Of a stretch of DNA of 64,000 nucleotides, positions 4,230-32,130 are shown piece by piece. Position numbers and translations under genes: made by a program. The stretch covers positions 1-64,000 of the forward strand of contig QPGO01000248.1 of assembly GCA_008632985.1 (NCBI GenBank), read 5' to 3'. The notes beneath the pieces were generated by a model. That model was not told the DNA's origin and did no database searches. It was given only the letters and a program-made list of their open reading frames with translations. Source of the DNA: Psammoneis japonica (taxonomy: Eukaryota). The number at the start of each line of letters is the position of its first letter. Within the stretch, counting starts at the first letter, position 1.

Positions 4230-4624
4230 GCTGTATTCTTGACACCGATGACTGTGGGATTTGTTCTCGCGTCTTTGCGATTCTGTTTCGAAGACTAGAG
4301 ACGAAAGGTGGCTGCAAGCCTATAATCTAAATTAGGGACTTGATATCGACAGTGTCGTCGACAGCAAATTCAGAGGATGATCGATAACAAGGGGTATCAG
4401 AGAAGGATTCGTGTAAAATGTCTTTCAACGCAATCTGGAATCAACGCCGTTCAATAAAAAAGCAATCGCAACGTGCAAGCAACGTGCAATCAACCAACCT
4501 TCTTTGCGCCTTATTGCGTGCACGACGCACAGGCGGGGGGCGAGCGACGGACGCTGGACGGACGGACGTCACAAACGCATGTCGTCTGTGCGTGCTCCGT
4601 GCCCCACTGCCGACAGCGATTCCA

Positions 4625-7600
4625 GATTTGAGAAGCGGCGTGGGCAATCCACAAGAGGACAGCGACGGGGACCGGTTTGACCCGGTCTGGTGGAGGATCC
4701 TCTTTCTTGTAGAAATGGATGTGGCGGCTGGTGCAGAAATCCATGTTGCCTTGGAGTGTGTGCCGCGGGTCCGGGGACCCCACTGCAGCGAACATTTGGC
4801 CAATCGACCGCAAGGCACCCTCAGCGGTGCGTGCGCGGACGGGATTGCCACGTGGGGCAATGGCGCCTGTACGGAATCGGTGCATGAAAACTTGGAAAAA
4901 GATGACTGGGTCATCGACGTCTTGCAAGAGAGGGTCGAGGGCCAAGTCGTTGCAGAAACTTCGCCAGAGGTCCCAGTGGGTGTTGCTGGAGCTGGCGGAA
5001 GAAGTGGCAACGCCGTGGGCAACGGCATGTTGCACAGCTCCAAGATCACGTAGGAATGCAGCGTGGGTGGCGGGGTCCAAAGGCGCCAAGAGGGAGTCTG
5101 TGGGCAGTGAGTGTCAAAATGTTGCAAGAAGGCACGGTTGGACAATTGTTGCAAGCGAGAGGCATCATCTGCAGCGGTGTTTGACGGTCCCGGCAAGCAG
5201 TCATGGAGCGACAGGTGGTGGTGGAAACGTTGGTGGTGACCTTGGTGTTGAAGGAGGGGTGCTGCGACCTTCGCAGTCGTGGTGGAGCCCTTGCATTGAC
5301 GAAAGAGAGTGCCGGTGTTGTCCGTGCGGTTGAGCACTGTGCGCTCTCGAATGTCGAAACAGTCCGCCGCGACACAGGATTGCACAATGCTGCCGACCAA
5401 CTCCAAGTCGGTGTTGGCAACATGACCGCGGGGATTCTTAAAGGTGGACAGGCGGTCGGTGACTGCTTGAGGGAAACGCACGCGCCACACGATGGGTCCG
5501 GCGTTGTGTTGTGGTCTCCGACGGCAAGCAGTGGAGCAACGCAGCGTGGTGCTGCATGCGACCGCTGACGGCGTGGGGAGAAGGACGCCACCTGCACCAT
5601 GACCGGCTGCATCATGGCAGCCTGTGACAGTGGGCGACAGGGGGACAAGTTCTTGGATGCGGGTGGGGCGGAGATCGAGCCCGCGGTGTGACAACCGAAA
5701 ATCGTCCAAGATGTCATGAAAGTTGCGGGCAAGACGAACTCACCCGTCAGGTTTGGTGTGGAGCGAGGCTTCCTGGAGTTCAGAGAACAGATTGTGAGAC
5801 CCGGGAATGCCGGGCGTGAGGGATCGCAGTTTGCCAAGAAGCTTGTGCAGGTCGGCAAGCGCTGCCCGCTTGCGATGGCGGGGAAACTCTTCGCACAGCG
5901 TGGTGCGGAGGCCCTCGCGGCGTCACGGCGCAAGGCGGATGGTCATGGACAAAGTGTCAATGATCCACCCCAGGACCTCCTTCTGCGTTGACCAAGTGGC
6001 GTCGCCTTTGCGGAGCTTTTTGACTGAGATTGGCTCCTTGCAACTCGTGTGGTCTCGGTTGTCGAGTGGACGAAATGCATCGTCAATGGCGTGCATTGTC
6101 GTGTGATGCACATTGCGCAGCGATTGTTTGGAGCCTTGGGCGGCGCCGACAAAGTCACCAACGCAGATGTCGACATGTTGGAGGCGCTGCCGGTGGTGGT
6201 GCGCGAGGTGTGGATCTGGCGTGTCTGGCACTGGGACAGCGATGGACGGATTCACGTCAGTGGTGATGGCGTGGTGCTTTGGTGGTTGGCTGTCAAGGCA
6301 AGGCTCGAGTGGGTGTTCCGGTGCCCGATGGTTGTGCACAAGCTGGCGATTGGCAACGTCGGCGACCGTCTCGGTCACTGTGCTAAATGCCGGAGGTGAG
6401 TTGGACCATCCCATGGGTGACCGAGTTGGCATGGCTGCCAGGGGAGGTTCCCGGGAAGGCGGGGAAAAACCACACCCAGTGTGGGTGCTTGCTCGGGCGC
6501 CAGCTGCATGCGGTGGAAACCATCAGCTGAGTCAATCTTCGTCAGACAGACGCGGCCCTTGTTTGGATTGGCAAGGAGAGCACGCCGAAGGATGCGGTCC
6601 AGCGTGTGCCCGAACTGCATGGATTCCATTGGCACATTTGGCTGAGCAGAGGGATTGACACCGCAGAACGTGTGGTCCACAATCGGTCGTGGTCTGCATG
6701 CGTGTTGTGGGACAACGCCGACAGGGCTCAGCCGTAGATTGGGTTCATTCTTGACGTTGTCGCATGGAACAACCACCCAGAAACCTTTGTCGACACAGTC
6801 AGACATGTCTTCGCGCAAAAACTCAATGTGTTCGTAGGTGGACTTGTGTGGTCCTCGTGCGATGCTACCTTGGAGCTCAGCGTTGGACCATGGCTCGTCT
6901 GCAACAGTGACCGGTGCCCCTCGACATTTGCAACTGGTGAGCACTCGGTGTGCTGCATGCTGTCGCATTGCCACCAATGGTCCCCAGTCACCTCTGCCAC
7001 TGTGCAGACGCAACAAGCAACTGAGGCCTCTAAGGTGCAACAATTTTGCATCGCGTGCAATTTGCTTGCCCAATTTGTCAGTCAGTGCTGATGCAGCCAC
7101 ATCTTGTCCACGTGTTGTGGGGTGGAAGCACCGTTTTCTAGACTCCACTTGCGGGGGTTGTGGATGCATGGGCTTGTGTGCCCATGCGGGAAGTGGCTCT
7201 TGGTTCCATGTCCCCAAGCAAGAACCATTGCCGATGACCCATTCGGTCTTCCAATGTTGCGTGCCCCACGTGAGAAGGTCAACCTGCTCCTGCTCTGTGT
7301 GGTTGTGATGATGATCGGCACGTGATCCGCAGTTGTTGTTGCACTGTCCAATGAAATGGTGTGGGAGACAACGTGGCGCCCCTTGGGAATCCGTGGGCAA
7401 GGCGACATTGTCACGGGCGCAGCGCTGCTTGACGGTGCGCGAACCCACATTGGGACGCTCCCGCAAGACCGTGAAGCGTTCGTCGTGCTGTTCGTTGCGG
7501 ACGATGGAATTGTCGCCAGGTGCATTTGCGCGGTTTGGTCCTGGCTGTGGCTGCCCAGTGGTCTGCGAACGCGGCATCGTGGGTGGTTGAAGGACAGACG

Positions 7601-9750
7601 TTGGCAGGTCGAGACGCCAATGGCAGGTGCCTTGTGCGGCCTCAGCCACCACTGGGAGCGGTCGAAATGGGACAGGGTTTTGTGAGTGCGTTTGCGCCTG
7701 GAACCAATGGCACATCTTTGCCTGTGCGCAATGTTGTAGGTCCGCTGGCAACGTCGGGTGCAACACCACTTGCGCCGCCAAATCGTTTGCGCAGACGTCC
7801 ATTGACTGGTGCACGTGAGTCAACCACTGCACCAGTGGATGTGCTGCGCCAAAGGCTGCTGAGAGAACGATGCGCAGACCGTCGAAAGACTGTTGAACTG
7901 CCTGGATTGCAGTGGCCACCACAGCATCATCCAGGGCCTCCAACACCCGCGCACCCACCAAGGACGGTGTGCCATCGCCTCCATGAATCTGTTGACACAT
8001 GGAGCTGCGACAGGCGGTCTGCTCGGCTTGCTCCGGTGCAGTGATGCCGAGCAAGAAAGGGGCAATTCCCTGAGTTAACTCGTCCTTGTCATGCCCAGCA
8101 AAGTCGACTTGGGTGAGTTTTGTGACCAGGTTCACGGTCACCGGCACATTGAAGCACACGTGGTGTGCTTGCTGTTGCTCATCGATTGCATTTTGGACGG
8201 CAGCAATTCGGCCGGTTTTGGGAGAGGCCGCCAGCTGCGCCCAGAGTGGTGGCAGGTTGGCTTCATGATGCACCTGGCACAAACGCATGAGTTTGGTGAT
8301 GCCAAACTCTCTGCAGAACTCCATCGGTGTCTTGCCGCGCGATGCCGCCTGTTGGCGCGCTTCCGCGTCTGAACGTTGTTGGCGCTGTTCTGCTGTCAAG
8401 CTCTCAATGGCCGTGACCACTGGTTCGAACTGGCGTGGTTGCGGTGGTTGGCCTGCGTGGTGCGGAAGGTCACGCTGCACCATCATGTCAAAGAAATGAA
8501 TGAGCACTTCGTTGGGTGGCTGCACCATCGTTGGCCATGCTTGCGCTGCTTCGGACACATGTTGGTCCCCCATGCTGTCGCGCAACACGCCACTTTCAAA
8601 AAGTCCAGAAGTGGCCTGCATTCATTGACTGTGTTGGCAGCTGCGACAGCTCCCAGCACCCAGGTGAACGCTTGCTTTGGCATCAACGGCATTGAAAGCA
8701 AGAGATTGACATGCGCGAATGGCACCATCATGGTGTTCCGCGTCCTGACCTCAACCGCGTCTGGGTCGTTCGGCTGCACTTGTGGGTGCAATCCTTCCGG
8801 GGTCATGACAATGTGAGCTTGCAGCGCTGTGTCGGTCTGCACCCATGTGCCGTGTTGGGCCAGCTGAAAGGCATCATTGGCAATGGGTGCAAGTTGGCAT
8901 TGTCCCATCATCAGGTCGCCCACGAGCGCAAAGAATTGTCCGTCCCACGGTTGTGCTGGTCCTGCCACCGTGATCGGGTGCTGGGTTGCACGATGAAACA
9001 CCTGTGTGACTCCCACATTGTTGCCTCCTTGCACCCGGCAGTGCTGCACCTGTGCCACAGGCAAATCGTGCGAAGAAGCTGCTCCAACACGGGTCCTCAG
9101 CACGTTGGGATCATGGCAGGGCTGCCCTTGCAGTGGGACCATGAAGTCCTGCATGATTTCCGCACAGTTGCCGGCGTGCGGATCCTTTGTGGCGTGCAAG
9201 CAGCAATCCCGACAGGTCCGGATTACTGCTGGTGGTGCTGGAACTCCCTGCCCCACGGGACCTGCTGGCGGTGCGGGTGGCACTTGAGGTGCCGGCTGTT
9301 GGGGAGGCCCTCCCGGGGCTTGTCCTCCCTGCGCTGCGGCAGGTTGTGCCGCTGCTCCTGGCACTGCCGGCGCCACTGGATGCACCGGTGCTGGTGGCAC
9401 GTTCTGGGCGTTGTTGGCCGCCGGAATCGGTTGTTGATTTTGTCCGCCCCTGGGTTGTTGTGCCGCCGCAGCAGCATCCGGCGGCGGATCATTTCCGACA
9501 TTTCCGTCTTGGTTCATGACGTGTGACTATCCTGCGAGCTTCATAGATGCAGCGGCAGATGGTATCCTCCGCCGAACACAATAGCGCTTTTAGACTATCT
9601 ATTCGGCTTGCTGCTAAAGCTCTTCGGAAGAATGAGCAACAGCAGCTTGCTTCCAAACGCCAACTTGAATGCGTTCAATGTGGTAGAGCGGGGGGTGATT
9701 TCCCGGTGCGTCATCAACGGGTAATGAGGTCATCTCCCCTTGTCGGTCTT
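4625..9750 (-). mobile_element. Tyrosine-recombinase retrotransposon (DIRS order, Ngaro/PAT-like), copy 1; 3'-truncated and hypermutated
   Basis: Gag-like ORF from ATG 9517 ending in a Cys/His knuckle. RT motifs (LSPVGVVPQ..RPRPIVD, KIDSADGF, PMGWSNSPPAF, ICVGDF = decayed YVDDF), RNase H region (HDAAGHG, DLELVG, ADDASR) and the N-terminal part of the YR ORF. Collinear with copy 2, with several frameshifts. Confidence 0.9.
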
Positions 9751-9891
9751 TACGAGGCCAGATTTTGGAGACGATCATCGATGTTATGGTCAGGTTGGGC
9801 GTTGGACGTTGACCTGAGGAAGGAGAGCAGGGTTGCTTTGATTACTTTACTGCATTTAGCACAATAGCAGCAATTAAAAGCTTCATTGATA

Positions 9892-10968
9892 ATGACGAGA
9901 TCACAAAGCATTACGGTGAGATCGAAATCCAAAGCGATGCTTTCTCGTGAGCAAAAACGAACAAGAAAAGTGGCAAAGGCGGTGGCAACCTTGGCAGCAT
10001 CGACTAGTAGCGTTTCAAAGGCCTCCGCGGCGGCGTTCACCACCACGTCGCCGTACTTTTCTTCAACCCCCAAGAATCATCGTTCTCCATTTTATACAAC
10101 TGCTCTTTCCTCGAAAACACCAGGCAAGAAGAAGAACCCCCCAGGCAAAAAGAAACAGATTGAAAGAACACACTCGTTTGAGCCTGTTTGGGCCGGAACA
10201 CTCCTAGATCTGGTTGACTGCGACATTGAACCGCATACTCTAATCCTTGGAACGCACCCATCGATCAAGTCTCTCGAAGAAGAGCAGTACTACGGACATC
10301 AACAAAACGCTTTTTGGTGGATTGCTGGTGATTGTCTTGGGTTCCGAAGGGCCAGGTACGCACAACTGTACAAATGTGATTTTCAGCAACTGAACCTGTG
10401 GCATATCTCAAGCTTGATCTATACTAATTGTTGTTCTATCTATAGCGCGGTGTCTCCTTCCACAGGGAAGCCATACAAGTTCTCCTCGAGCCTTCGCTAT
10501 GACGAAAGCCACATAGTTCCATACAACGATCAGTTACAGATCATGGTGAAGAATGGCTTTGCTCTCTGGGATGTTATCGGTTCATGTAACCGGGAGGGTT
10601 CTCTGGACTCTGCAATTAAGAATGAAATACCAAATGACATTCGAGGATTTTGTGAGCGCCATGCATCTGTCAAACGGATCGTGCTTTCAAACGGTAGCAC
10701 CGGATCGCAACTCTTTGCGAAATCAAACATGGACTGGTGGCTTTCGGGTGAGCTTAAACCCGGCACCAATGTGCAATCTCAGAATGCTTTTGGTCGGTTC
10801 GCGAAACAAACAAACGACTTCAAGGATGCCAAGATCACATGCATTACCGCTCTTGGCGTAAGTCCTGCCGCAGCAAGGTTTTCGTATGAACAAAAGAGAG
10901 AATTCTGGGAAGAGTACGTGTACAAACCGGGATTACAGGACTTTGAAGCGCAGCAGTCACCACTCTAG
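9892..10968 (+). CDS. Uracil-DNA glycosylase superfamily, family-6-like hypoxanthine (deoxyinosine) DNA glycosylase; probable intron 10356-10445
   Basis: Motifs TLILGTHPSIKSLEEEQYYGHQQNAFWWI, LWDVIGSCNREGSLDSAIKNEIPNDI and LGVSPAAA match the family-6 pattern. Basic N-terminal extension. GTACGC...CTAAT...TAG intron. Confidence 0.85.
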   Translation: MTRSQSITVRSKSKAMLSREQKRTRKVAKAVATLAASTSSVSKASAAAFTTTSPYFSSTPKNHRSPFYTTALSSKTPGKKKNPPGKKKQIERTHSFEPVWAGTLLDLVDCDIEPHTLILGTHPSIKSLEEEQYYGHQQNAFWWIAGDCLGFRRARYAQLYKCDFQQLNLWHISSLIYTNCCSIYSAVSPSTGKPYKFSSSLRYDESHIVPYNDQLQIMVKNGFALWDVIGSCNREGSLDSAIKNEIPNDIRGFCERHASVKRIVLSNGSTGSQLFAKSNMDWWLSGELKPGTNVQSQNAFGRFAKQTNDFKDAKITCITALGVSPAAARFSYEQKREFWEEYVYKPGLQDFEAQQSPL

Positions 10969-10980
10969 CACTGTTTCCGA

Positions 10981-11440
10981 TTAAGCCTTCCCCATGTGAG
11001 CCCCGATAGACATTTTCCGGAGTGATGCTTGTGCTCTATTGTAATGGATTACTCTCTCATTCGTGGACGCTGGAGCTTGCTCCTGTAAGTCTGTAACTCG
11101 AACAGCTTGCTGCAAAAATGCCAGAGCTTTATCTCGGATTGACTCATTCTCATTCTCTTTAGGCTGCTGTAAACCGATCATAACGCAGGCCCGCATTTCC
11201 ACTTTGTGGGGCGCCCGATAGCTACAGACCTAGAACTCTTCGTTTCTGCATGATACACAAGTAGTGTTTCATCTCCAGCTTGGAGCTCACATGGGTGTTT
11301 GGTTGATGGGCCATTATCAAGCAGTAGAATGTAGGAATGAAACATGCCAGTATGGACTCGAAATGGGCGGGAGGGCAAAAAGCTTGACATGGCTGCTTCG
11401 GGAAGAATCAACGCCATCGTTCTTGCAGAGGAACCGTCTC
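10981..11440 (-). pseudogene. Degraded C-terminal fragment of a type II (archaeal/plant-like) 3-dehydroquinate synthase
   Basis: GSSARTMALILPEAAMSSFLPSRPFRVHTGMFHSY..ELQAGDE..SVAIGR followed, after a frameshift, by FLQQAVRV..GAHMGKA*. This matches the DHQS-II SRPFRVNAGPVHSY / LQxAETVRL region. No intact 5' part is visible. Confidence 0.7.
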
Positions 11441-11952
11441 GCTAAACTCTCTAGTACTTTGTGCATCTAAGGCCAGGGCATACTTGAATATTTGATGCAA
11501 TGCCAGAGTGTGATGTACCTAGAAGTATGTAGCAGGGAGATCATCGGATAGAAGACAGAACGTCCCAAACAGCTTCTTGTTGCAAAGCCAGAGTGCAGCC
11601 ATGGTGTACGGGTAGGGAGACCATGGGATACCAACACAGTAGGCCCTTCTATTACTCTCTCTAGCTAGCTATGTTCTCTACTAGTAGACACTCCCAAGTT
11701 GGCGGTCTCTAGAGAGAGGGCCTACCTCTACAGTCCTACATTTTAGAATACAGTTTTCGTTTAGAGAGAGTACATAGGGCCCTTGCAATACAAATCCAAT
11801 CGAGTTGATCATTCTAGGCTCTATCTACTGTACCTGGTACAGTACCGGTAGGTATACACGCGACGCGATGGTTTTATTTTGGCGATGACAAAGCGGAAAA
11901 CGAATGACTTCAAAACAAAAGATACCCTACGATAACTTTCGGGTTTACGACC

Positions 11953-13497
11953 ATGGTCGATGACATTGCCGATGGTTCCCTAGATGGAATAGATAATTCC
12001 TTGAGTCCCCAGCATAATTTTGCAGACGCAGTTCAAGCAGAGGAGCAATCACGTGCTGTTCGCAGCGTCCCGAGTCTCTTTCAGTTCAACCATGCTCCCC
12101 CAGAAGCTACGGGCCTTGGTCTTGATGTCTACGGCCGAGGGGCCGTGGTGATGAGTTCTCTCTTTGTGGGTCCTGTCCTTATTCAGCTCGCTGCCAATGA
12201 GGCAGAGAGTCGGTGTAACAATCAAGAAAATTGCGAGGACGCACGAATATACGGAATGCTTCCGTCGTCCTTGCTCAGTAACATTGCTATCGTCTCGGGA
12301 CTGACTGCGGCCTTTTTGTTGCCACTTTTTGGAGCCATCGTAGATCACACTTGCTACCGCCGACAAGTTGGATCCATTTCTGCAGCCTTAATCGCGGTGA
12401 TTAAGGGTGTCGAGGTGGTTGTGTCTTCCAGAACGTGGGCATTTGTTGCAGTCTGTCAGGTGTTTTCGGGCGTGCTGTACATGATTCATCTTTGCGCTAC
12501 ATTTGCCTACACGTCCGAGTTAAGTTCGTGTCCGGCTGAGCAGACAAAGTACAACACGTACTTCAACATTCTCCTATACATTTCGACGCTTGCGTTTCTT
12601 GCGGAGGTGTTGCTGATTTCAACTACGTTGGGTCTTGCCGATTTGGGGACTGCACGGGTGTCCCAGATAGTTACAACTAGCACAGCAGGACTTTTCTTTG
12701 GATACGCATGGCTATTTCTCTTTCGAAATCGCCCAGCGCTAAGTCGTGTTCCAGAAGGATCAAGTCTCTTGAGATGTGGCTTTCGACAGATCTACGACAC
12801 TACGGTAAAGATTCGATCGGATCTTCCGGCGCTCAAATGGTTCATGGTGGCACTCACTTTTAACGAGTCGGCGAGTGCTACTCTCATCACGATTGCAACA
12901 ACATACATGACACTTTTGCTTGAAATGAACTCTAGCGAGATTGGTGTTGTTTTCCTGGTGGTGTTAATTCTTGGCATCCCGGGAACAAAGCTGGGAGAAA
13001 CCGTAGCCTTGCGATTCGATCCTGTCGTGAGTGCAAGGGCTTGTACCGTTTGCTTCATATTTGTCACAACAGCGGCTTCGTTGTTTTTACGTGGTCCCGA
13101 GGACAAGCAGTTTGTTCATATCTTTGGCGGTCTGTGGGGGTTGTGTTTGGGCTGGTTGCATCCAATGGATTCTACAGTCTTCATTACCATCATTCCGAAA
13201 GGCCAGGAGAGTGAGTTGATGGGAATGTATATTTTCTGTGGCCAAGTCTTATCATGGCTACCGCCTCTAGTGTTTACCGTGTTGAATGAAGCTGGGGTGG
13301 AAATGAGCGTGGGTCTAGCTTCCCTTAATTTGTTCTTTCTCCTGGGTCTCTGTTTTCTATTCCTCATGGGCAATCACAAAACAGCAGTACATGTTGCGAG
13401 ACTGCACAGCAGGCAGGGCTACTCAATGCACAATGACAACGAGAGTAAATTTCACGAGGGTGGCATGGGTGACATTTTTCTGCCGTCAATAACCTAG
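11953..13497 (+). CDS. MFS transporter, Atg22/UMF1-like
   Basis: 514-aa intronless ORF with about 12 hydrophobic segments; LLPLFGAIVDHTCYRRQ and IIPKGQESELMGMYIFCGQVLSWLPPLVF motifs. Confidence 0.8.
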   Translation: MVDDIADGSLDGIDNSLSPQHNFADAVQAEEQSRAVRSVPSLFQFNHAPPEATGLGLDVYGRGAVVMSSLFVGPVLIQLAANEAESRCNNQENCEDARIYGMLPSSLLSNIAIVSGLTAAFLLPLFGAIVDHTCYRRQVGSISAALIAVIKGVEVVVSSRTWAFVAVCQVFSGVLYMIHLCATFAYTSELSSCPAEQTKYNTYFNILLYISTLAFLAEVLLISTTLGLADLGTARVSQIVTTSTAGLFFGYAWLFLFRNRPALSRVPEGSSLLRCGFRQIYDTTVKIRSDLPALKWFMVALTFNESASATLITIATTYMTLLLEMNSSEIGVVFLVVLILGIPGTKLGETVALRFDPVVSARACTVCFIFVTTAASLFLRGPEDKQFVHIFGGLWGLCLGWLHPMDSTVFITIIPKGQESELMGMYIFCGQVLSWLPPLVFTVLNEAGVEMSVGLASLNLFFLLGLCFLFLMGNHKTAVHVARLHSRQGYSMHNDNESKFHEGGMGDIFLPSIT

Positions 13498-13649
13498 AAA
13501 TTCATAGATAGAAATTGCTACTCTGCGCTCGTATGCTAGCCTTTCTACCGGCACTAACTCTAGCTAGCTCTGCTGTACTGTAGGTACTAGCTAGCTACTC
13601 TAGCCACATGCATAGAGCCAGTTAAAGAGATGCTGTTGAGTATGAAGTG

Positions 13650-16330
13650 AAGTGGTCCTCGTTGCCGAAGGATGGACGGTAGAGGGGGCGGTCGTGCATT
13701 TATTTGCTGCCAACTTTATCAGAGAGACATTGCTTGGACAACCTGCTCTGAAGCCTGGAATGGGCATTGGTGCTTTGGTGTGATGGCATCTCACTGATTT
13801 GTTGATTTTTGTGACAAGCGCCATGCTGTTGACCGGCATGTGAGTTGCTCGCGCAACACAGCACACACACATGTGTGAGTGTGTGTGGACATTGGCAAAT
13901 TATGTCTCAGGGCAAGCTGTGTGTCACAATGACACTGCAGTCCTTGGATGATGGCTCACTTGTGGGATGTTGTCAGTGTCACATGTGAGCCAAGAAACAC
14001 AAGCATCTCCATGCATTGACAACTGGAAAGTCACTGGTCACTGCCAGGTGTCTCAGGTCAAGCCATGCTGTGTCATGATGACATGGCGGTCATTGGATGA
14101 TCACTCACTTGTGGGATGTTTTCAGCACCACATGTGAGCCAAAACACACAAGCACCTGTGCATTGAAAATGGAAAATTGCCAGTGACTGACAGTTGCTGC
14201 TGGGTGCAACATGCAACATCATTGCTCAAAAATGCAGCACGTGCCAGCCATCCCCAAGTGTCAAATGTCCCTCAGCATCTCTCACAATTTGTTTCTCTGG
14301 AGACAGGAAAGCACACCACTTTCACCCTGCACTTGTCACTTTGTGACAACACATCACCAATTTCTCAAACTTTGTCACCACAATGGGTGCCAGCACATTG
14401 GGGCTCTTTTGATTCATTGCAGTGGGTGCAGTGGTGTTGTGTGGTGTCGCTGTGTCTTGCCACACAAAGTGTTGCTGCAGTTGCTGGTCTGAGCTGGGAA
14501 CAGATTTCACACTCAAAGAGCCAAATCCAGTGCTCCAGCACCACCCAAAAGACCTGCTTGGTGCAGCTGCAAACCCAGGAGTTGCTTTTCCTGCCTCATT
14601 TTTCACGTTGCAAGCACACAAAAAGACTGTGTGTGGGTGGGTGGGGGTGAACTGCAAAACAAGGGCATGGGGGCAGGAACACCTGCTTCTTCTCAATTTT
14701 TGCTGGCAACAAGATTTCAGCTTGGGTTGAGTGAGTCACAGAGTTGGAGCAGGCAAACTCATGAGCTTGGAAGGTGTCTGCTTCAAGAGACAGCAAAAAG
14801 CCCACACTTTTTCTCACAGGTTTAAGAGTGCCATGCCTTTGAGGAGCTGTTTCACATGTGAAGTTGTTGTTGTGCAATCATCATTGTCCAGGGCAACTGG
14901 GGCATTGCTGCTCACCCACATCCTGTGCAAGCACAAGGAAGTTGCCAACAAAAATTGAGCATGGGGCTGTGCTTCTGTTGAAAAAGATCCCATTGCAACT
15001 CTGCCTCACTTGCTGGAGCTCACATTGAGCAGCTGAGAATTGACAGCCCAGGGCAGACATTCAAGGCTGCTCTCACTTTGAAAACACAGGCAAAGGGTTC
15101 TTTGGGGTGAAAGTGCTGTGTGCTGCAACCTGCAACAACCACGATGCTTGTGCACAGGTTGGTGCTCAGAAATGTGTGCCAGATGTGCTGGTTGCTTTGC
15201 TTTTGCCCAGTGCTGGCAACCAGGAAGCAGCTTGCAAGAAGAAATTGGGCGTGATGGCTTTGCTTTTGCCCAGTGCCAGAAACCAGAAAGCCTGCAAGAA
15301 AGCAGGCACACAGGCTGGTGTGCTCTGAAATGCACTGGACATGGTTGCTTTTTGTTTTTGTCAAGTGCCACCAACCAAAAAGAAGATTGCAGCAAAGTGG
15401 GTGATTTGGGAGAGCACGTGGCTCAGACTCTGTGGCTTGCTCTTAAAAGGCATTGCTGGCCCAAGGCCAGAGCTCAGACCACAAAGTCTGCAGCCACAAG
15501 CTTGCAAAAAAGGGTGAGCACCAGTCAGCTCATGAGGTTTCCAAAATTGCCTTCAAGGGGGAGCAAACTGGGCTTTGTTGGATGGCAAGAAGTTTCCCAG
15601 AATCAGGCCAGCTTTCCTTGTTTGCTTCTTTTGTTTGCAAGAAAGCAATGCATTTTGGAGATCACACAGAGCATGTGTTCATTTGCCCCTTCTGGGATGA
15701 TGTGCACAAACAGGTTGACAGCCCATGATGCTCTGCACCACAGCAAGATTGGTGCTCTCACTTGGTTGCTTGTTTTCCTGACTCAAGAGTTCCAGCCCCC
15801 CTCCCCACTTGGAATGACTGGAGTGACCTTTTCTTGAAACCACCAAGCCCCCACTCTGGTCAATTTTTTGTCAGTTTTTTGTTGGGGCATCCTGTGGTCC
15901 AGCAGCCATTTTTGCTCCAGCGCTGTGCAACAAGAGGGAACAACATTGGTGTGACTGCTGTGTGTGCAGATTTGGGGCCAAGGCAGCCAAGCACCGCACC
16001 TTTGGTGCTTTGTTGCAGCACCACCAGCACTCTGAGCCAACACACAGTGCAAAAAGCAGCCAGTGTCATCATTGTTCTGTCACAGTGGGAAACTTGCCAG
16101 CTGCACTTCTTGGCTTGTTTGTTGCTGAAGCCAACCCAGTGGTTTTTGTTGGTGGGCACACATGCACTGCGGCGTGCCTCTTTTCCTGTTGTCATTTGTG
16201 GCACCTCACCGGTTTGAGGACTTTGAAAGCCAGAGCTGGTTCCTGAAATGATTTGGCAGTGCATGAGTTGAAGCATTCATTTTGCTCGGCAATCGGGCAG
16301 ATTGTCCAACGTGAACAGGGGCAACGATGA
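13650..16330. repeat. Old degenerate repeat/TE block depleted in both TpA and CpG
   Basis: TG/CA-rich, with spurious Cys/His-rich ORFs in all frames. Contains a diverged ~146-bp tandem duplication (13904-14049 / 14050-~14190) and a ~63-bp one (~15194 / ~15257). Confidence 0.75.
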
Positions 16331-16826
16331 GCGGCTCACGCCGCCCGTCTTGTTCCTTCTCCTGCGGCTCTCTAGTGCCATCTAGAGATCTTCCAATGAT
16401 GGACTGGAATGGCTTTGCCAGCGGATGCGCAAGCCTCATTCCCAAAAACCCAAGCTGGAGCGGCAGGGCCAGAGGGCGGGAGAGGTGGGAGTGTTAAAAA
16501 CTGTCTGGCGGCTTCTTGCTCTTTGTTGCTCTTCGGAAGAATGAGTGAAGCAAACGAGAGAAGAGCAGAAAAAACCGTCATTTGCTCGCCAAGTTCGCGC
16601 AAGCACGTTCAAATTTGAGTTCAAACGGTTTGCATGACCCAACGGTCAAATGCGGGTCATTTGCCTTGTCGCACTGCACAAGGTGGGCGGCTCACGCCGC
16701 CCGTCTTGTTCCTTCTCCTGCGGCTCTCTAGTGCTGTCTAGAGATCTTCCAATGATGGACTGGAATGGCTTTGCTGGCAGATGCGCAAGCCTCATTCCCA
16801 AAAACCCAAGCTGGAACGGCAGGGCC
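16331..16826 (-). repeat. 3' terminal B1-A2-B2 split direct repeats of element copy 2
   Basis: 140-bp B repeat at 16331-16470 and 16687-16826. 195-bp A2 at 16493-16687 matches 22508-22702 with 6 differences. Confidence 0.95.
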
Positions 16827-16896
16827 TTCCAGCGCCACCTACAGTGCCGTGCACTTTTGGGAGGGTGGGTGGGTTGAGGCTGGAAGGCTGTGGTGA

Positions 16897-18072
16897 TCAG
16901 GCGTCTTGAGGATTTTGAGGGACGTCAGCATCAGGGTGGAGGACGAAGTCGCCACCGGCGAGCATGTCGCGAGCGAAGTTGCGCATGACTGGTTCTGCTT
17001 GCAAGTGCAGGTGTCGCAACATTTCGTCGGATCGCCAGCGGCCTAAGAGCCGAATGAGATTGGTGTCCACATGGGCACAAAGGAGGGCCATTGCTCCGGC
17101 GGCACGAAGACACCGAGCGGCAACATCTCGGGTGGTGAAGCCGAGATTAGCCGGACCGAGAGCAGTGACAGCATTGCGCAGCATGCTGGTGATGTCGGCC
17201 GGGGACACACGATGCCAGGTGTTGTTTTGAAAGCAAACACCAAGGGGTGTGTCAGGGAGCGCACCGTGGGTGCGCAAGTGTTGGACACGGCGGATGAGGG
17301 CTTGAACCGGGCACAGGTGGGGGTGACCGGAAAGACCAAGCCCCAGAACTTCGCCTCACACTCCATTTTTCTGGGCAGCAAAGGTGAGAGTGGCGAAGTC
17401 TGCTGTGTCAAGGTGTGCAAGTGGAACTTGCATGGTGTCCAGGTGAGCACCACCAGACGCAAGCCGGACATCGGCGAAACGAAAGGGGGTGGTGTCTGAT
17501 GGTGTTGCGGTGCACTCGCCAGGCCGCAACAAGAAGAAAAAGGCAAGTGCAATCATTTCAGCAATGGCTTGTGTGCCCGGGTCATTGCTGAGGGCTGCGG
17601 CAGTCATAATCCATTGCAGCACTGCAATTGGGACCGGTTTTACGCGGTCTGGGGGTGGATCCTGCTTCTTGTAAAAACGGACTTGCCGGGTAAGGCGGAA
17701 ATCCATTGTGCCTTGGGATGTGTGGCGTGGATCCGGGGACCCCATTGCAGCGAACGTTTGGCCAACCGAACGTGCGGCATCTTCAGCGGTTCTTCCACGG
17801 ACGGGATTGCCCATCGGCGCGAGGACTCCTGTGCGGTGTCGGTGCAAGAAGACTTGGAGGAAGACAACAGGGTCGTCAACATCTTCGAGGAGTGGGTCGA
17901 TGGCCAAAGAGGAGCAGAACTCTCGCCATTTGTCCCAATGGGTGTTGGCGGCGGAGGCTCTGGAAGAGGTGACGCCATGCTGGACTGCGTGTTGAGCAGC
18001 ATTGAGATCACATATGAACTCAGTTCTGGTGGAGGCATCCAGAGACGCCAGGAGAGTTTCTGCGGATAGCAC
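16897..18072 (-). pseudogene. Tyrosine recombinase ORF of copy 2, inactivated
   Basis: FFFLLRPGECT, QKNGV*GEVLG (in-frame TGA at 17356-17358, likely from CGA), RCLRAAGAMALL and LLGRWRSDEMLRHLH, with His at the catalytic Tyr position. Confidence 0.9.
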
Positions 18073-21000
18073 AAATTAAAGTGGCACAAAAATTCACGGT
18101 TGGACAAAGACTGTAGTCGTGAGGCATCGTCAGCGGCAGTGTTGAGGCACCCAGGCAGGTGGTCATGCAACCCCAAGCAGCGATGGCAGCGTTGATGGTA
18201 GGATTGGCATTGAAGCAACCGGGAGGCGGGTTTGACGGCAGTGGTGGCACCTTTACGTTGCCAATGCATGGTGCCTGAATTGTCGGTGCGTGAAAGACTA
18301 GTGCGTTCACGGATGTCAAAACAGTTGGCGGCGCCGAAGGACTGAATGACACTGCCGGCAAGTTCCAGGTCTGTGTTGGTGATGAGACCGCGTGGGTTGG
18401 AGAAAGTGGAGAGTTGACTGCTGACACTTTTGGGAAAGGGCAGTCGCCACACTGCAGGACCCGCATCTCTCTGTTGACAGCGTCTGCAATTGCCGAAACG
18501 GAGAGTGGCTGCTCTGGGTGCTGTGGTGCTGGTTGGCAGGAGGACGCCGCCTGCGCCGTGACCTGCAGCATCATGACAGCCGGTGAGTGTTGGTTTGAGT
18601 GGAACCAATTCTTGAATGCAAACGGGTCGGGCGTCTAGGGTAGATTCTAGATCCCGAAAATCATCCAGTGTGCAGTGCGCATTGGCGGAGATCCGGACGC
18701 GTGAGTCCGGAGTGGTGTGTCGGAGATTTTCTTGGAGTGCTGAGAAGAGACCCCGGGAGCCGGGGACAGCAATGCTCAGAGAGCGTAGCTCTCCCAGCAA
18801 TTTCTGACAATCGGAGACGGCAGCACGTTTACGTGTGCGGGGGAAATCCTGGTGCAGCGTTGTGTGAAGTCGGGCACGCCGTCGGGGCGTGAGTCGGATG
18901 GTCACAGCGCGAGCATCTATGAGCCAACCCAGGACTTCTTTCTGCGTGGACCATGTGGCATCACCCTGGCAGAGCTTCTTGATGGAGACGGGCTCTTTGC
19001 GGGTGGCTGGGTCATGTGCATCGAGTGGGCGGAAAATGTCATCGAGAACATGCAGCATCACACGATGAACGTTGCGCCGGGCTTGCTTCGAACCTTGCGC
19101 AGCGCGGAGGAAGTCGTCAACATAGATGTCGATGTGTTGCAAGCGGCGGCGCCGACGCGGACGGAGGTGTGGGTTGGGCGCATCAGGAATGGGCACGGCC
19201 TGGGAAGCTGCGGCAACTTGTGGTGGTTGGTGCTTCGGCGGGCGGCTTTCTAAAAGCGATTCCAGCGGATGTGGCGGTGCTTGGACGTTGCGCACCAAAT
19301 CCAAATTGGCGATGTCAGCGACAGTCTCCGTTGCTGTGCAGAACAATGGCGGGGAGTTGGCCCAGCCCATGGGCAAGCGTGTTGGGATTGCAACCAATGG
19401 TGGTTCGCCCGGTTGGTTCGGGAACACTGCACCAAGTGTGGGAGCCTGTTCTGGCGCAACTTGCGTGCGGCAATGGCCATCAGCCAAGTCGATCTTCATG
19501 AGATAGACCGTGCCTTTTCTGGGATCGGCAAGTGGGACACGGCACAGAAGGCGGTCGAAGGCACATCCAAATTGCATGGCTTCCATTGCAGCATTGGGTT
19601 GCGTGGAAGGATTCAGCCCACAACAGGCACAGTCTACAATGGGGCGGGGGCGTCGACCATGTTGAGGCACCACGCCAATTGGGCTTGGGCGAAGACCGGG
19701 GGTGTGACACACTTCCTCGTAAGGGATGACAACCCAAAAACCCTTCTCGACCATGTCGGCCATGTCTTGGCGCAGAAACTCGATGTGTTCATAGGCGGAT
19801 TTGTGTGGACCCCTGGAGATGCTGGCGTCTGGCTCAGCATGCGTCCATGGTGCATCGGCGGCGGTGATGGGGGCACCTCGGTGCTTGCAAGTGCTCAGCA
19901 GTCGGTGAGCTGGGTGTTGCTTGACTCGGTGGAGTGGACCCCAATCGCCTCTGCCACTGCGATGACGTGACAAGTGACTGAGACCTCTGCGACGCAGCAA
20001 CGCAGCATCAGTTCGCATGTGCTCACCCAGTTTGTCATTGTAGATTGCGGCAGCAACATCCTGTCCACGGGCAGTGGGGCGGGTGCACTGCCTCTTGAAA
20101 TTCTCCACAGTCAGGGGTTGTGGACGTGATGGCGCGTCGACCATCGCGGATGAAGGCTCTTGGCTCCAAGTCCCCGAACTTGGGCCATTGCCGAAGACCT
20201 GTTCGGTCTTCCAGTTCTCCTCACCCCAGGTGAGAAGAGTGGCCTGTTCGGCGTCTGTGTGGTCATTGCGATGATCACAGGACGAGCCACAGTTGGTGTT
20301 ACATTGCCCTTTGTAATGGCAGGGAAAGCAACGAGGACGACCTTGGGCATCTTTGGGAAGTTCGATGTTGTTCCTTGCGCATCGGTTTTTGACATCGCGT
20401 GACCTGACGTTGGGGCGGTCACGAAGCGTGGCGAAGCGGTTGTCATAAGAAGGGTTGTGGACTGCGCTGTTGCTCCCTGCGGCTTGACTGATGGGGGGCG
20501 TGTTGGCAGGCTGGTGTTGAGTTGCCGGGGCCGGTGCGGCTCCCAGTGCAGAACTGGGGCTGGCAGCTTGCATGCTAGCGGGCAAGTGCGGGCGCCAGCA
20601 CATGATTCCTTTAGCCGCTTCAAACACAACGTTCAATGGTGAGAATGGAAGCGGGTGAAGGGAGGCTTCTTGAGCCTTGAACCAATGGCGGACTTCAATC
20701 TGCGCACAGTGTTGAAAATCCACGGGAAGGGTTGGGCACCAAGCAGCCTGTGCTGCCAACTCGTTGGCATGCCGGTCCATGTCTTGACGTTGACGGGTGA
20801 GCCACTGGACAACTGGATGGTTGGCTCCAAGTGAGGCAGAAAGCACCAGGCGGTGTCTGTCGCAGGACTGCTGAGCGGCTTGCATTGTCGTCGCCACAAG
20901 CGCCTTGTCTGGTGCTTCCAGGATCTGCGTGTCTTGGAGGGACGGGGCCGCAGCGCCGCCATGAATGTGCATGCACATGGCCTTGCGACAGGCGATCTGC

Positions 21001-22433
21001 TCGGCACTGTCTGGCGCAGCAATCCCAAACTGGAATGGGGTGATGCCTTGGGTTGGCTCGTCTTGATTGTGACCAGCAAAATCGAGCTGTGCGAGCTTGG
21101 TGACAAGGCCAACCGTGACTGGCACGTCAAAGTGAACGGCCATCGCCTGGCGTTGCTCGTCAATTGCATTTTGGACGACTGCCAGGCGGCCTGTCTCAGG
21201 CGCTGCGGCAAGGGCAGCCCACACAGGCGGTGGTGCTGTCTCGTTGAGGGCATGGCACCAATTTGTGAGCTTGGTGACGCCAAAAGGTCCCCAGAACTCA
21301 TTGGGAACCTTGCCCCGGGCAGCTGCTTGTTGACGTGCGGTGGCGTCAAGTCGAAGTTGTCGTTGTTCCGTGGTGAGCTCTTCAATGGCCTGTGTGACCG
21401 GCTGGAAGTGCTGCGCGGTGGGTGGTGCATGACCCAGTCTTCCAGGGATGTCCCGCTCCACCTTGGCATCAAAAAATTGAATGAGGGCTTCGTCAGGGGG
21501 ACGTGTCATGACAGGCCAAGGTCGCGCCACAACAGATGCCACTTGGTTGTTGGCAGTGGCACAGCAGGCGACGCGCAAGAAGTCGAGCAGTGGTCGGATG
21601 GCAGCCACCTTGTTGGCTGCCGCAGCGGCGCCGTGCACATGCTGGCTGGCTTGTTTGGGATGCAAGGGCTGTGCCAACAAGAGCGGCACAAACTCAAATG
21701 GCACGTGCATTGCATGTCGTGTCCGCATGACCTCCGAGTTTGGTGCATCCTCAGCCAGATGCGGATGCAGGCCTTCCGCATTGTTGGCGACATGCTCCAG
21801 GAGTGCGGTGTGGGTCGGTGCCCCAGTTCCCTGCTGTGCCAAGTTGAATGAGTCGCCCCCGAATTCGACCAGGGTAAACTGTCCACGGGTTGGGTCACCC
21901 GCCATTGCGCATGTCTCACCGTCCCAAGGTTCGGCAGGTCCGACCACGGTCGTCGGACAAGTGGTGACGCGGTGCAGGACTTGGATCTGTCCTTTGTCCG
22001 CTGCGCCGTCCTCTCGGCAGTGTGTGATGACTGCCATCGGCTGATCGTGACTTGACGCCGCTGCAACTCGCCCATGGAGCACGCCGGGGTTGCATCTCGA
22101 AGGTCCCTGAACCGGAACCGCGAAGTCTGGCATCGACTCGTCGTGTGCCCCCCAGTGTGGGTTGTCAGCGGCTGTGAGGCAAAAATCCCGACACATCGCA
22201 ATGACCGGTGGCGCCGCCGGCGCGGCTTGTGCACCCGGTGGCGGTGGCGGCACGACGGCTCCTGCTGCTTGCGGTGCCAACGGAGGCACCGGGACTTGTG
22301 GAGGAGGAGGTGGCGGAGCGTGTTGGGCTGCCGTGATGGCTGCTGCAGCTCCTCTTTGCGGTGGAGCAGGGTCGTTGGCATTCTGGGCGTTCTGGGCCCC
22401 TTGTCCTGCGTTTTGCTGCTGTTGCGCGTCCAC
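17640..22433 (-). CDS. Gag + reverse transcriptase + RNase H reading frame of copy 2 (mutated, now continuous)
   Basis: Pro/Gln-rich N-terminus, Cys/His knuckle CFPCHYKGQCNTNCGSSCDH, RT motifs RLPMGWANSPPLFC and IYVDDF, RNase H motifs. Probable start is GTG at 22433, inferred from tATG. Confidence 0.85.
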   Translation of the reverse strand: MDAQQQQNAGQGAQNAQNANDPAPPQRGAAAAITAAQHAPPPPPPQVPVPPLAPQAAGAVVPPPPPGAQAAPAAPPVIAMCRDFCLTAADNPHWGAHDESMPDFAVPVQGPSRCNPGVLHGRVAAASSHDQPMAVITHCREDGAADKGQIQVLHRVTTCPTTVVGPAEPWDGETCAMAGDPTRGQFTLVEFGGDSFNLAQQGTGAPTHTALLEHVANNAEGLHPHLAEDAPNSEVMRTRHAMHVPFEFVPLLLAQPLHPKQASQHVHGAAAAANKVAAIRPLLDFLRVACCATANNQVASVVARPWPVMTRPPDEALIQFFDAKVERDIPGRLGHAPPTAQHFQPVTQAIEELTTEQRQLRLDATARQQAAARGKVPNEFWGPFGVTKLTNWCHALNETAPPPVWAALAAAPETGRLAVVQNAIDEQRQAMAVHFDVPVTVGLVTKLAQLDFAGHNQDEPTQGITPFQFGIAAPDSAEQIACRKAMCMHIHGGAAAPSLQDTQILEAPDKALVATTMQAAQQSCDRHRLVLSASLGANHPVVQWLTRQRQDMDRHANELAAQAAWCPTLPVDFQHCAQIEVRHWFKAQEASLHPLPFSPLNVVFEAAKGIMCWRPHLPASMQAASPSSALGAAPAPATQHQPANTPPISQAAGSNSAVHNPSYDNRFATLRDRPNVRSRDVKNRCARNNIELPKDAQGRPRCFPCHYKGQCNTNCGSSCDHRNDHTDAEQATLLTWGEENWKTEQVFGNGPSSGTWSQEPSSAMVDAPSRPQPLTVENFKRQCTRPTARGQDVAAAIYNDKLGEHMRTDAALLRRRGLSHLSRHRSGRGDWGPLHRVKQHPAHRLLSTCKHRGAPITAADAPWTHAEPDASISRGPHKSAYEHIEFLRQDMADMVEKGFWVVIPYEEVCHTPGLRPSPIGVVPQHGRRPRPIVDCACCGLNPSTQPNAAMEAMQFGCAFDRLLCRVPLADPRKGTVYLMKIDLADGHCRTQVAPEQAPTLGAVFPNQPGEPPLVAIPTRLPMGWANSPPLFCTATETVADIANLDLVRNVQAPPHPLESLLESRPPKHQPPQVAAASQAVPIPDAPNPHLRPRRRRRLQHIDIYVDDFLRAAQGSKQARRNVHRVMLHVLDDIFRPLDAHDPATRKEPVSIKKLCQGDATWSTQKEVLGWLIDARAVTIRLTPRRRARLHTTLHQDFPRTRKRAAVSDCQKLLGELRSLSIAVPGSRGLFSALQENLRHTTPDSRVRISANAHCTLDDFRDLESTLDARPVCIQELVPLKPTLTGCHDAAGHGAGGVLLPTSTTAPRAATLRFGNCRRCQQRDAGPAVWRLPFPKSVSSQLSTFSNPRGLITNTDLELAGSVIQSFGAANCFDIRERTSLSRTDNSGTMHWQRKGATTAVKPASRLLQCQSYHQRCHRCLGLHDHLPGCLNTAADDASRLQSLSNREFLCHFNLCYPQKLSWRLWMPPPELSSYVISMLLNTQSSMASPLPEPPPPTPIGTNGESSAPLWPSTHSSKMLTTLLSSSKSSCTDTAQESSRRWAIPSVEEPLKMPHVRLAKRSLQWGPRIHATHPKAQWISALPGKSVFTRSRIHPQTA

Positions 22434-22507
22434 AATGGACTCGCCAAAGGTTCTTCCTGCGAACAACAGGGAGCTGTGGCGGAGGCATCCTGCGCCGCGT
22501 CGATGGC

Positions 22508-22702
22508 GTTAAAAACTGTCTAGCGGCTTCTTGCTCTTTGTTGCTCTTCGGAAGAATGAGTGAAGCAAACGAGAGAAGAGCAGAAAAAACCGTTATTTGC
22601 TCGCCAAGTTCGCGCAAGCACGTTCAAATTTGAATTCAAACGGTTTGTATGACCCAACGGTCAAATGCGGGTCATTTGCCTCGTCGCACTACACAAGGTG
22701 GG
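22508..22702 (-). repeat. 5' terminal A1 repeat of element copy 2
   Basis: Direct repeat of 16493-16687. Contains the inverted repeats ATGACCC...GGGTCAT and CAAATG-CGGGT-CATTTG. Confidence 0.95.
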
Positions 22703-22830
22703 TGGAGGAGCACGGCGCATGTGCGGCGATCATGGACACGAGCTATTTGGCAGCTAAAAAAGTGTGTAGGTGATGACCGCCTCATTTATTTTTTGAGGCG
22801 AGCCAATGGAACATTAACAGTGCTCTTCTG

Positions 22831-25103: not shown

Positions 25104-25449
25104 AGCAAATGGACCCTTGAAATGCAATTTCTCTCTTGTGCCGTTTGAAATTGATGCTGCAGAGAAAAAAGATTCTTGCTTCATCCGTTCTAACGTTTGG
25201 CGATGGAGCTAGCTTGTGGCGTTTTAAGTGGCAAACCTAACTGCCAACCTTGCTGCTCGCAATGGCCCATGGGTCTTGCTTCAGTTCACTTGTGTTGAAC
25301 AGCATGAGAAGAGTCAAAGCGAAGCGTGTCACAACGAGAGCCATAGAGAAAGAAGATGCTGCCATCATTGTCGAGACAGCAATGTAAAAAACATCCTATA
25401 ACGCCACGATTTTAGATGCTGTCAGCTTCCTTTCCTCCACCCTCCACAT

Positions 25450-29740: not shown

Positions 29741-29851
29741 GAAATCACGCACGACCGACGACGCACGACGCACAATAAAATCGGCGCTCTGACTCCCAAC
29801 TGATGTAGAGAAGAGCAGAGATAACAGATAAAACAGCGGAAGGAAATTCGA

Positions 29852-31960: not shown

Positions 31961-32130
31961 CAGACTCATCGTAGCTTTAGCAGCAGACTCATCGTAGCTT
32001 TAGCACGGCGGCAGGCAGGTAAAAAATAAAACATATATCCTGGCAGCGAGTTCTGGCCGCCGTCCGCAGCCCAACCACAACAATAGCAATAACCGGCAAC
32101 CTGGAACCTTCAATCTCTATCCAAAACACC

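Follow-up and report, generated by a model that had tools for sequence, protein, structure and literature searches.

TpA-to-TpG/CpA mutation in mobile-element blocks of a diatom genome: the probable footprint of a host mutator that acts on integrated DNA

The first 64,000 nucleotides of contig QPGO01000248.1 (positions 1 to 64,000, forward strand, assembly GCA_008632985.1) of the diatom Psammoneis japonica, hereafter the window, consist of host genes of ordinary composition and of blocks, two of them holding DIRS-like retrotransposons, in which the dinucleotide TpA is nearly absent. The loss is mutational: the DNA of the mobile-element blocks has undergone a polarised change of TpA to TpG or CpA. 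We propose that a host mutator, working at the level of DNA and targeted to regions, is responsible, and we put the probability of this reading at roughly 0.78. Such a process would convert 5'-TpA-3' to TpG or CpA (A:T-to-G:C transitions) in integrated mobile or silenced DNA, on both strands and after integration, and would leave neighbouring genes untouched. It would act site by site, quickest at R-TA-Y and slowest at Y-TA-R (R, purine; Y, pyrimidine). Reading frames would stay open, yet tyrosine codons would be destroyed, including that for the catalytic Tyr of a recombinase.

The blocks were delimited by a per-kilobase dinucleotide table and segmentation of the window, which gave five TpA-poor blocks that sum to 36,700 of the 64,000 bases (Table 1). 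The ratio of observed to expected (o/e) TA is 0.048-0.122 in the blocks versus 0.56 in the gene segments between them, and TG and CA rise to an o/e of 1.5-1.9 inside the blocks versus 1.15 in genes. An earlier note on this DNA had described TA loss in every block beside normal adjacent genes, and about a dozen TA in the body of the first retrotransposon; both statements agree with our counts, the second with 13 TA in 4828 bp (4700-9527). The loss is restricted to the blocks, and their borders are sharp, within about 100-200 bp. At one border TA occurs every 5-40 bp as far as 13717 and afterwards just at 13901, 14823 and 15444. In the largest block, no TA at all is found across 48245-50765 (2.5 kb).

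Was TpA lost from these blocks, or were they always poor in it? For the two retrotransposons, which we call copy 1 and copy 2, the answer comes from 80 related metagenome loci, the best 80 of 308 confirmed relatives and a set that leans to intact copies. All 80 have a TA o/e of 0.44-0.85, at G+C contents of 45-63%. The earlier note had allowed that the family might prove equally TA-free, and in these 80 loci this is not the case. The direction of change was examined in alignment columns that have one residue in at least 60% of the 80 relatives, with a Fisher test. Copy 2 keeps 505 of 642 such conserved columns and none of the 11 Tyr columns, which now read 4 Cys, 4 His, 2 Phe and 1 Arg (p 3e-8). 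Copy 1 keeps 311 of 448, and 0 of 8 Tyr columns, now 5 His, 2 Cys and 1 Pro (p 7e-5). Thus, a TAY codon has become Cys (TGY) or His (CAY) at 8 of these 11 Tyr columns of copy 2 and at 7 of the 8 of copy 1. The two elements also differ from each other in this way, since Tyr at positions 930, 1002, 1129 and 1481 of copy 2 is Cys in copy 1.

Two examples lie in the recombinase. Its RPGEY motif, with Tyr in 95% of 60 relatives, reads RPGEC in the window, and LRYLH, with Tyr in 98% of 61 relatives, reads LRHLH. These two motifs, on the minus strand, bear out what the earlier note had quoted. Its third example, YVDD in copy 2 changed to CVGD in copy 1, is present in the DNA; in the wider family this column is F in 51 of the 80 relatives and Y in 28.

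The timing of the change can be read from the terminal repeats of copy 2. A1 and A2 would have been alike at integration, because of the way in which elements of the DIRS order replicate. They now differ at 7 of 198 positions, all by transitions: four differences are TA in A1 versus TG or CA in A2, two are CG versus TG, and one is AA versus AG. A1 retains 5 TA and A2 only 1, and 13 CpG are kept in each. The B1 and B2 repeats also show 7 differences, transitions only, among which are two adjacent swaps of TG for CA, so that 14 of 14 differences in the two repeat pairs are transitions. The A1/A2 differences show that TA was lost after integration. They and the Tyr columns supply the polarised enrichment of TA>TG/CA that the earlier note had looked forward to. 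When the two copies are compared with each other, CA versus TG is the most frequent class of double mismatch (86 of 820 dinucleotide columns; the runner-up class has 31). Such an excess is predicted if an ancestral TA, or CG, was resolved independently, to TG in one lineage and to CA in the other. In the old blocks, TA and CG together are lower by 82.9 per kb than the gene baseline and TG and CA together are higher by 83.9.

Both strands are affected, as the earlier note had recognised. At the 86 discordant sites copy 2 has 41 TG and 45 CA, an equality that editing of RNA on one strand fails to explain. Nor are the events grouped by strand: runs of same-strand events at these sites number 49, with 43.9 +/- 4.6 expected, so there are no strand-coordinated clusters of the kind that a processive single-strand deaminase might leave.

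The survivors reveal a preference for flanking bases. RTAY (ATAT, GTAC, ATAC/GTAT) accounts for 3 of 113 surviving TA and for 304 of 993 TA in genes (p 3e-13), with the same trend in all four block sets, and YTAR (TTAA, CTAG, CTAA/TTAG) makes up 37-64% of surviving TA versus 19-20% in genes and relatives. Expressed as densities per kb, RTAY falls from about 10-12 to 0-0.2; for the mixed contexts the fall is from 19 to 0.7-3.7, and for YTAR it is from about 7 to 0.9-2.3. RTAY is therefore erased almost completely and YTAR survives best. This is a testable rule of recognition. The rule may reflect either a linear single-strand motif, TAY, in which a pyrimidine follows the A, or recognition of the duplex; dinucleotide products vary with the baseline, flank counts at the discordant sites are balanced by construction, and the polarised events stand at only about 20:10.

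How does TpA loss relate to the familiar loss of CpG? In the two retrotransposons TA o/e is 0.11 and CpG o/e 0.82, compared with 0.64 and 0.85 in their relatives. The earlier note held that CpG stays abundant, and this is true of the copy 1 block (o/e 0.85); the blocks outside the two retrotransposons, which it did not mention in this respect, have lost CpG along with TpA (o/e 0.17). Among windows of 500 bp, 20 are low in TA with normal CpG, 38 are low in both, and 0 have normal TA with low CpG. Thus, TpA loss outpaces CpG decay and is several times faster in the same DNA. CpG decay shows in copy 1, where 11 of 39 conserved Arg columns read His or Cys, and the CpG loss of the older blocks is ordinary.

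A second property concerns reading frames. By enumeration, TA>TG/CA creates zero stop codons, and TAA plus TAG amount to 1.8-4.1 per 1000 trinucleotides in the blocks versus 17 in genes. Because the change makes no stops, a frame of 1622 codons is still open in copy 2, a dead element. Similarly, long false open reading frames (ORFs) run in all frames of the blocks because TAA and TAG are nearly gone and new stops cannot arise by this route. ORFs of 150-750 codons lie in several frames on both strands (4400-9800, 13700-22700 and 48100-64000) and match no family. TpA-depleted relics are thus a trap for gene prediction, and mis-annotation is to be expected.

Not all of each element is affected: in both, the 160-200 bp that lie outermost at the 5' end retain TA at normal density. 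The 5' end of copy 1 (Table 1) has 9 TA in 160 bp (56 per kb) versus 2.7 per kb in the body. In copy 2 the outer repeat A1 keeps 5 TA and its internal twin A2 only 1, so exposure depends on position in the element and not on sequence alone. Perhaps the spared 5' ends are the part upstream of the element's transcription start. The earlier note took the process to be restricted to repeats and akin to fungal repeat-induced point mutation (RIP). As a statement about the sensing of duplication this is not borne out, for nothing in the window shows dependence on copy number and, in the chlorarachniophyte Bigelowiella natans, discussed below, the main target as the preprint describes it is a single-copy viral insert. 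The spared ends and that single-copy target together point to a trigger based on domains rather than on homology, and we infer that targeting follows silenced chromatin or the transcription unit rather than duplication.

A process of this kind has been described once already, although the earlier note knew of no equivalent. In a 2026 preprint, Mettrop et al. (bioRxiv 10.64898/2026.01.13.699255) report on mutation-accumulation lines of B. natans. According to its main text, 231 of 302 nuclear point mutations fell in integrated giant-virus and virophage regions, and 230 of these 231 were A>G or T>C, every one at TpA. Mutation was ongoing, at about 6e-7 per site per generation or about 1000-fold over background, and only some lines were affected. 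The same authors list 324 low-TpA genes, with reverse-transcriptase and DDE domains enriched among them, and 124 clusters in which TpA is low and CpA+TpG high, and they propose an ADAT2-like adenine deaminase. The likeness to the window is close: changes of TpA to TpG and CpA only, on both strands, in foreign or mobile DNA beside normal genes, with a long-term footprint in which TpA is low and CpA+TpG high. It suggests that the diatom process, too, would be a defence that is active and targeted, like the one measured live in B. natans.

There are also differences. The host there belongs to the Rhizaria and here to the Stramenopila, and the targets there are giant-virus and virophage inserts, here tyrosine-recombinase retrotransposons and old relics. 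Here the footprint is close to saturation (o/e 0.04-0.12), versus 0.45 given for the region of nucleocytoplasmic large DNA virus origin in B. natans. The rate there was measured live, whereas the diatom process is read from its footprint. The words 'context', 'trinucleotide', 'flanking', 'CpG', 'diatom' and 'stramenopile' do not occur in the main text of the preprint, so neither the R-TA-Y rule nor a comparison with CpG decay nor the diatom case is to be found there. A search of the literature, limited in coverage, found no report of the TpA>TpG/CpA signature in a diatom. A diatom with retrotransposon targets is new to this kind of process. The window thus adds a second, distant host, near-saturated retrotransposon targets, the R-TA-Y rule, precedence over CpG decay, the absence of new stops and the escape of 5' ends. 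A diatom footprint at saturation indicates that the process is not peculiar to one lineage, and the second host permits a search for the enzyme by shared gene content.

The comparison with fungal RIP is instructive. Both processes look like defences in which transitions at one dinucleotide disable mobile elements and leave a strong footprint. However, RIP turns C:G into T:A, chiefly at CpA, and gives rise to TpA and to stop codons (RIPCAL, PMC2621366), whereas the diatom process destroys TpA, raises G+C and makes no stops. RIP was accordingly rejected as a candidate, and the earlier note was correct that the direction is the opposite one. A sequence-specific A:T>G:C mutator directed against invading DNA is the mirror image of RIP and of APOBEC. 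Decay of 5-methylcytosine is a closer parallel, in that a symmetric dinucleotide in silenced elements turns into TpG/CpA, and it acts in the same blocks here. In the diatom Phaeodactylum, CpG methylation of transposons depends on DNMT5a (PMC9998398). The differences are that the dinucleotide is CpG, not TpA, and that the decay is slower here, where it is read from CpG o/e and Arg losses.

What, then, is the chemistry? Because TpA is palindromic, A>G and T>C are indistinguishable in the present data. Our tentative suggestion, with odds somewhat short of even, is that adenine would be deaminated to inosine in DNA by an enzyme of the tRNA-A34-deaminase type (ADAT2/TadA-like). The natural substrate of TadA/ADAT2 is U33-A34, in which U stands directly 5' of the target A. 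These enzymes and the base editors derived from them resemble the diatom process in that A>I is read as G and U or T is the immediate 5' neighbour. We know of no natural, chromatin-targeted DNA adenine deaminase of such a kind that has been demonstrated, and a natural A-to-G editor of DNA would be of interest to the base-editing field.

Alternatively, the T of TpA could be the target. A dioxygenase of the TET/JBP type would place 5-hydroxymethyluracil (5hmU) or a derivative on both strands, and mispairing or faulty repair would give T>C. The footprint would then record an epigenetic mark in decay, much as loss of CpG does for 5-methylcytosine. We consider this route unlikely, though it is the rival that survives best. 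In a palindromic TpA, T>C before A is the same event as A>G after T; the strand-symmetric outcomes (41:45) without strand runs suit a symmetric mark; and TA loss and CpG loss occupy the same blocks. Moreover, 5hmU in dinoflagellates, another lineage of the stramenopile-alveolate-Rhizaria (SAR) group, lies mostly in repeats and helps to silence transposons, and older work found TA and TC to be preferred (PMC11572971). In the accessible text of that article it is a mark and is not reported as a mutational footprint, and its preference includes TC, which is not depleted in the diatom blocks (o/e 0.91-0.94). Furthermore, 5hmU normally pairs with A.

It is tempting to go further. TpA, and best R-TA-Y, may be, beside CpG, a second symmetric site at which silenced DNA of SAR protists is marked, and there a chromatin-guided enzyme would modify or deaminate A or T on both strands of invading DNA; the rhizarian and diatom footprints would then trace one ancient defence that disables elements through the erasure of Tyr and stop codons and leaves frames open. 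In this full form the idea is speculative and probably goes too far.

Since so much depends on the letters themselves, we turn to the reads. Logan contigs of a run here called X1, built from exact 31-letter words (mean word depth about 59; the run is labelled 'DNA?' and its library type is not recorded), agree with the window over 3001-4661, 9732-16359 and 22676-23000, with 0 other letters and a single inserted base. The second of these contigs covers the entire depleted block at 13.7-16.3 kb with its flanks. Because these contigs are made of exact words, the reads of run X1 carry these letters. Contigs of another run, X3, matched nowhere in the window. Could a modified base at TA nonetheless have been misread as TG or CA, in base calling or in assembly, as the earlier note feared? 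The agreement of X1 with the window answers this in part, with the proviso that X1 is possibly not independent of the assembly. Error-prone raw long reads would hardly yield exact-word contigs that reproduce the 13.7-16.3 kb block without another letter. Misreading per strand would give conflicting calls and some CG, but the consensus is clean and the sums of dinucleotides lost and gained agree. Finally, different copies carry different, well-supported TG or CA at one place. We regard such an artefact as very improbable.

Some observations weigh against the proposed mutator. X1 may be the assembly's own source data, in which case the read check is not independent. Swaps of CA for TG could stem in part from CpG instead of TpA. 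Both elements have many relatives in X1, 1757 contig pieces, many of them 90-99% alike, which differ from the window by 370 transitions and 61 transversions, and these close relatives mostly share the TA-poor state. In the 40 best-supported of 432 differences, TA stands in another copy twice and in the window once; that is, 3 are TA versus TG/CA, 15 are CG versus TG/CA, 10 make up five TG/CA swaps and 12 are other. Part of the loss may therefore have been inherited from source copies that were already mutated and not acquired at this locus. Lastly, the polarised events at half-favourable sites run about 20:10 for A>G beside a 3' pyrimidine, a count in which two or three are entered twice.

Inheritance of this sort is what would be expected if ADAR-like A-to-I hyperediting struck the retrotransposon RNA before reverse transcription, so that copies arrived already edited. 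Both named elements are retroelements, the X1 relatives are mostly TA-poor, and ADARs prefer a 5' U, a point also made in the Discussion of the B. natans preprint. However, TG and CA are equal on the coding strand (41:45), TA sites differ between A1 and A2 within a single insertion, and the same loss is seen in blocks that are not recognisable as retroelements and have their borders at host genes. TAG contexts are among the survivors, though TAG is favoured by ADAR, and to our knowledge ADARs occur in animals only. In the preprint, moreover, the B. natans targets are integrated DNA viruses that mutate in situ. RNA editing is thus as poor a prospect as the base-calling artefact.

Error-prone resynthesis of patches by a Y-family polymerase of the Pol eta type, which the earlier note had offered as a mechanism, fares slightly worse. 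Pol eta does make A>G errors at WA (W, A or T), most strongly at TA, and in 3 of the 14 repeat differences AA or GA stands opposite AG or GG. Against this, AA is not depleted (o/e 1.25-1.32 in the blocks versus 1.14 in genes), and the known spectrum is not one in which TA alone is removed, nearly completely, under an R..Y flank rule. The weakest explanation is intrinsic composition, by which the families would avoid UpA/TpA under selection (RNA stability, nuclease) and would never have been TA-rich: many viruses and elements do under-represent TpA and host genes here have a TA o/e of 0.56, but the TA content of all 80 relatives, the loss of conserved and catalytic Tyr, the sister terminal repeats that differ at TA, and a fall in RTAY to 0-0.2 per kb, intolerable for coding sequence under selection, make it the least credible of all.

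Table 1. Positions and composition of the TpA-poor blocks, the two retrotransposons and the AlkB-like gene in the window
Feature	Position	Strand	Length (bp)	TA	TA o/e	CpG o/e	Remarks
Block	4401-9500		5100	16	0.075	0.85	
Block	13701-23200		9500	57	0.122	0.68	
Block	24801-29800		5000	29	0.088	0.26	no family match; sub-stretch 25300..29800 listed as feature
Block	30801-32000		1200	5	0.064	0.28	no family match
Block	48101-64000		15900	52	0.048	0.19	no family match; continues past window end
DIRS-like retrotransposon copy 1	4662..9687	-					3'-truncated within recombinase ORF; gag-pol legible in three frames
5'-terminal segment of copy 1	9528..9687	-					escaped TA loss
Relic block	13701..16327	no strand		5 in 2.6 kb		0.07-0.08	TpA and CpG both lost
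DIRS-like retrotransposon copy 2	16328..22705	-					full length; split direct repeats A1 - ORFs - B1 A2 B2 (self-BLAST, alignments, ORFs, relatives)
Repeat B2	16328..16470	-					twin of B1
Repeat A2 (internal)	16493..16690	-		1			
Repeat B1	16684..16826	-					95% identical to B2
Tyrosine-recombinase ORF of copy 2	16897..18075	-					broken by one TGA (17356-17358), a position that is Arg in relatives
gag-pol ORF of copy 2	17640..22508	-					1622 codons, still open; reverse-transcriptase motif YVDD
Repeat A1 (outer, 5' end)	22508..22705	-		5			96.5% identical to A2
AlkB-like 2-oxoglutarate-Fe(II) oxygenase gene	29825..30460	+			normal		PF13532, E 5.8e-12; spared

The two retrotransposons, with all their motifs, lie on the minus strand. 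The earlier note treated them as copies of one family, and we retain its labels, but their DNA identity is only 61-66%, so they represent two related families. The copy 2 ORF finds copy 1 at 48-60% amino acid identity in frames -2, -1 and -3 (tblastn). As to the ends of copy 1, unique X1 contigs stop at 4661 and resume at 9732, with loose ends at 9687/9688. The TA loss of copy 1 (TpA o/e about 0.07) is accompanied by retained CpG.

In elements of the DIRS order a tyrosine recombinase takes the place of a DDE integrase, and long terminal repeats give way to inverted repeats or to split direct repeats (A1 - ORFs - B1 A2 B2). We read both elements as tyrosine-recombinase retrotransposons of this order, on the strength of the repeat layout and of a recombinase assigned by alignment and by the predicted fold of a relative. 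The pol region is related to proteins of diatoms (Cyclostephanos, Pseudo-nitzschia, Thalassiosira oceanica; E down to 1e-266), and relatives likewise have a single long gag-pol ORF of about 1500-1650 amino acids. Copy 2 has the YVDD motif and a weak match to Pfam RVT_1 (12.4 bits, E 0.13; cut-off 29.6 bits); a relative, P0097, at 27.7 bits and E 2.7e-6, also falls under this cut-off. The ORF downstream of pol in copy 2 aligns with ORFs of about 388 amino acids in the relatives. The predicted structure of one of these (mean pLDDT, a per-residue confidence score, 76) has a Cre/Xer/lambda-integrase fold (best Foldseek E 3e-5, probability 1.0), with matches to Cre, Xer, Tn1549 and lambda integrases at E 3e-5 to 3e-2. 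The recombinase ORF itself had no Pfam match, and a search of PDB sequences with a recombinase profile gave 0 matches. Its single TGA is a stop of the CGA>TGA type. The plus-strand ORFs of copy 1 had no Pfam match, nor, at E 0.001, had the long minus-strand ORFs. In several of the related elements (metagenome contigs L004, L007 and L060) the N-terminal part of gag-pol is at the contig end and the rest at the contig start. They look like circularly permuted assemblies, which would be expected from circular intermediates or from tandem copies of tyrosine-recombinase retroelements.

The remaining TA-poor blocks were called repeats in the earlier note. Self-BLAST, however, finds no second copy of them inside the window, and the block at 13.7-16.3 kb shares a single X1 contig (9732-16359) with unique genes. 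In the TpA- and CpG-poor blocks, 88 of 89 ORFs of at least 110 amino acids have no credible Pfam family, and the one clear match is a host FCP gene at the edge. An AAA-lid match in a TA-poor block (E 0.0076) is under the family cut-off, and an Atlas look-up of the longest ORF in these blocks gave scores of 0.82-0.84, which is chance level. With 35 DIRS-like proteins searched against the window by tblastn, 0 of 139 high-scoring segment pairs fell outside the two copies. Within the 48-64 kb block surviving TA are bunched, with 8 in 400 bp (54012-54410), and CpG is higher in the last 2.5 kb (61.6-63.9 kb; o/e 0.25-0.47). This block is probably a mosaic of differently aged pieces.

The genes between the blocks encode an alpha/beta hydrolase, an ATG22-like transporter, a CN-hydrolase, a chlorophyll a/c-type antenna protein, an AlkB-like oxygenase, a dual-specificity phosphatase, a Hint-domain protein, a GNAT protein, pirin, a PPPDE peptidase, a WD40 protein and ArsA/Get3 ATPases. 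They are diatom genes by their relatives: the named best relatives of the ATG22-like ORF are all diatom (Seminavis, Phaeodactylum, Skeletonema, Cyclotella, Fragilaria; 42-50% identity), with another match at 66%, and the WD40 ORF is nearest to raphid pennate diatoms (Fistulifera 64%, Seminavis 59%, Amphora and Nitzschia 57%).

The AlkB-like gene forms a 1-kb island with normal TA, flanked on both sides by TpA- and CpG-depleted blocks. Enzymes of the AlkB family act on alkylated bases by repair or demethylation; no evidence ties this gene to the hypermutation. Two adjacent coding stretches of the ArsA/Get3 ATPase type on the minus strand (45332-46445 and 47172-48164; PF02374, E 2e-39 and 6e-39) adjoin the 48.1-kb border of the largest depleted block; they represent a tandem duplication or else a single two-domain gene in two halves. 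On the plus strand, an ORF of 834 codons (33846-36347) ends in a C-terminal Hint module of the hedgehog/intein autoprocessing type (PF01079, E 5e-20), and its N-terminal part is without assignment. A further run, X2, is RNA-like despite its label 'DNA?': one of its contigs, which fall on gene segments only, joins 10353 to 10444 and skips 90 bases (10354-10443), which fits a 90-base intron in the gene at 9868-10965.

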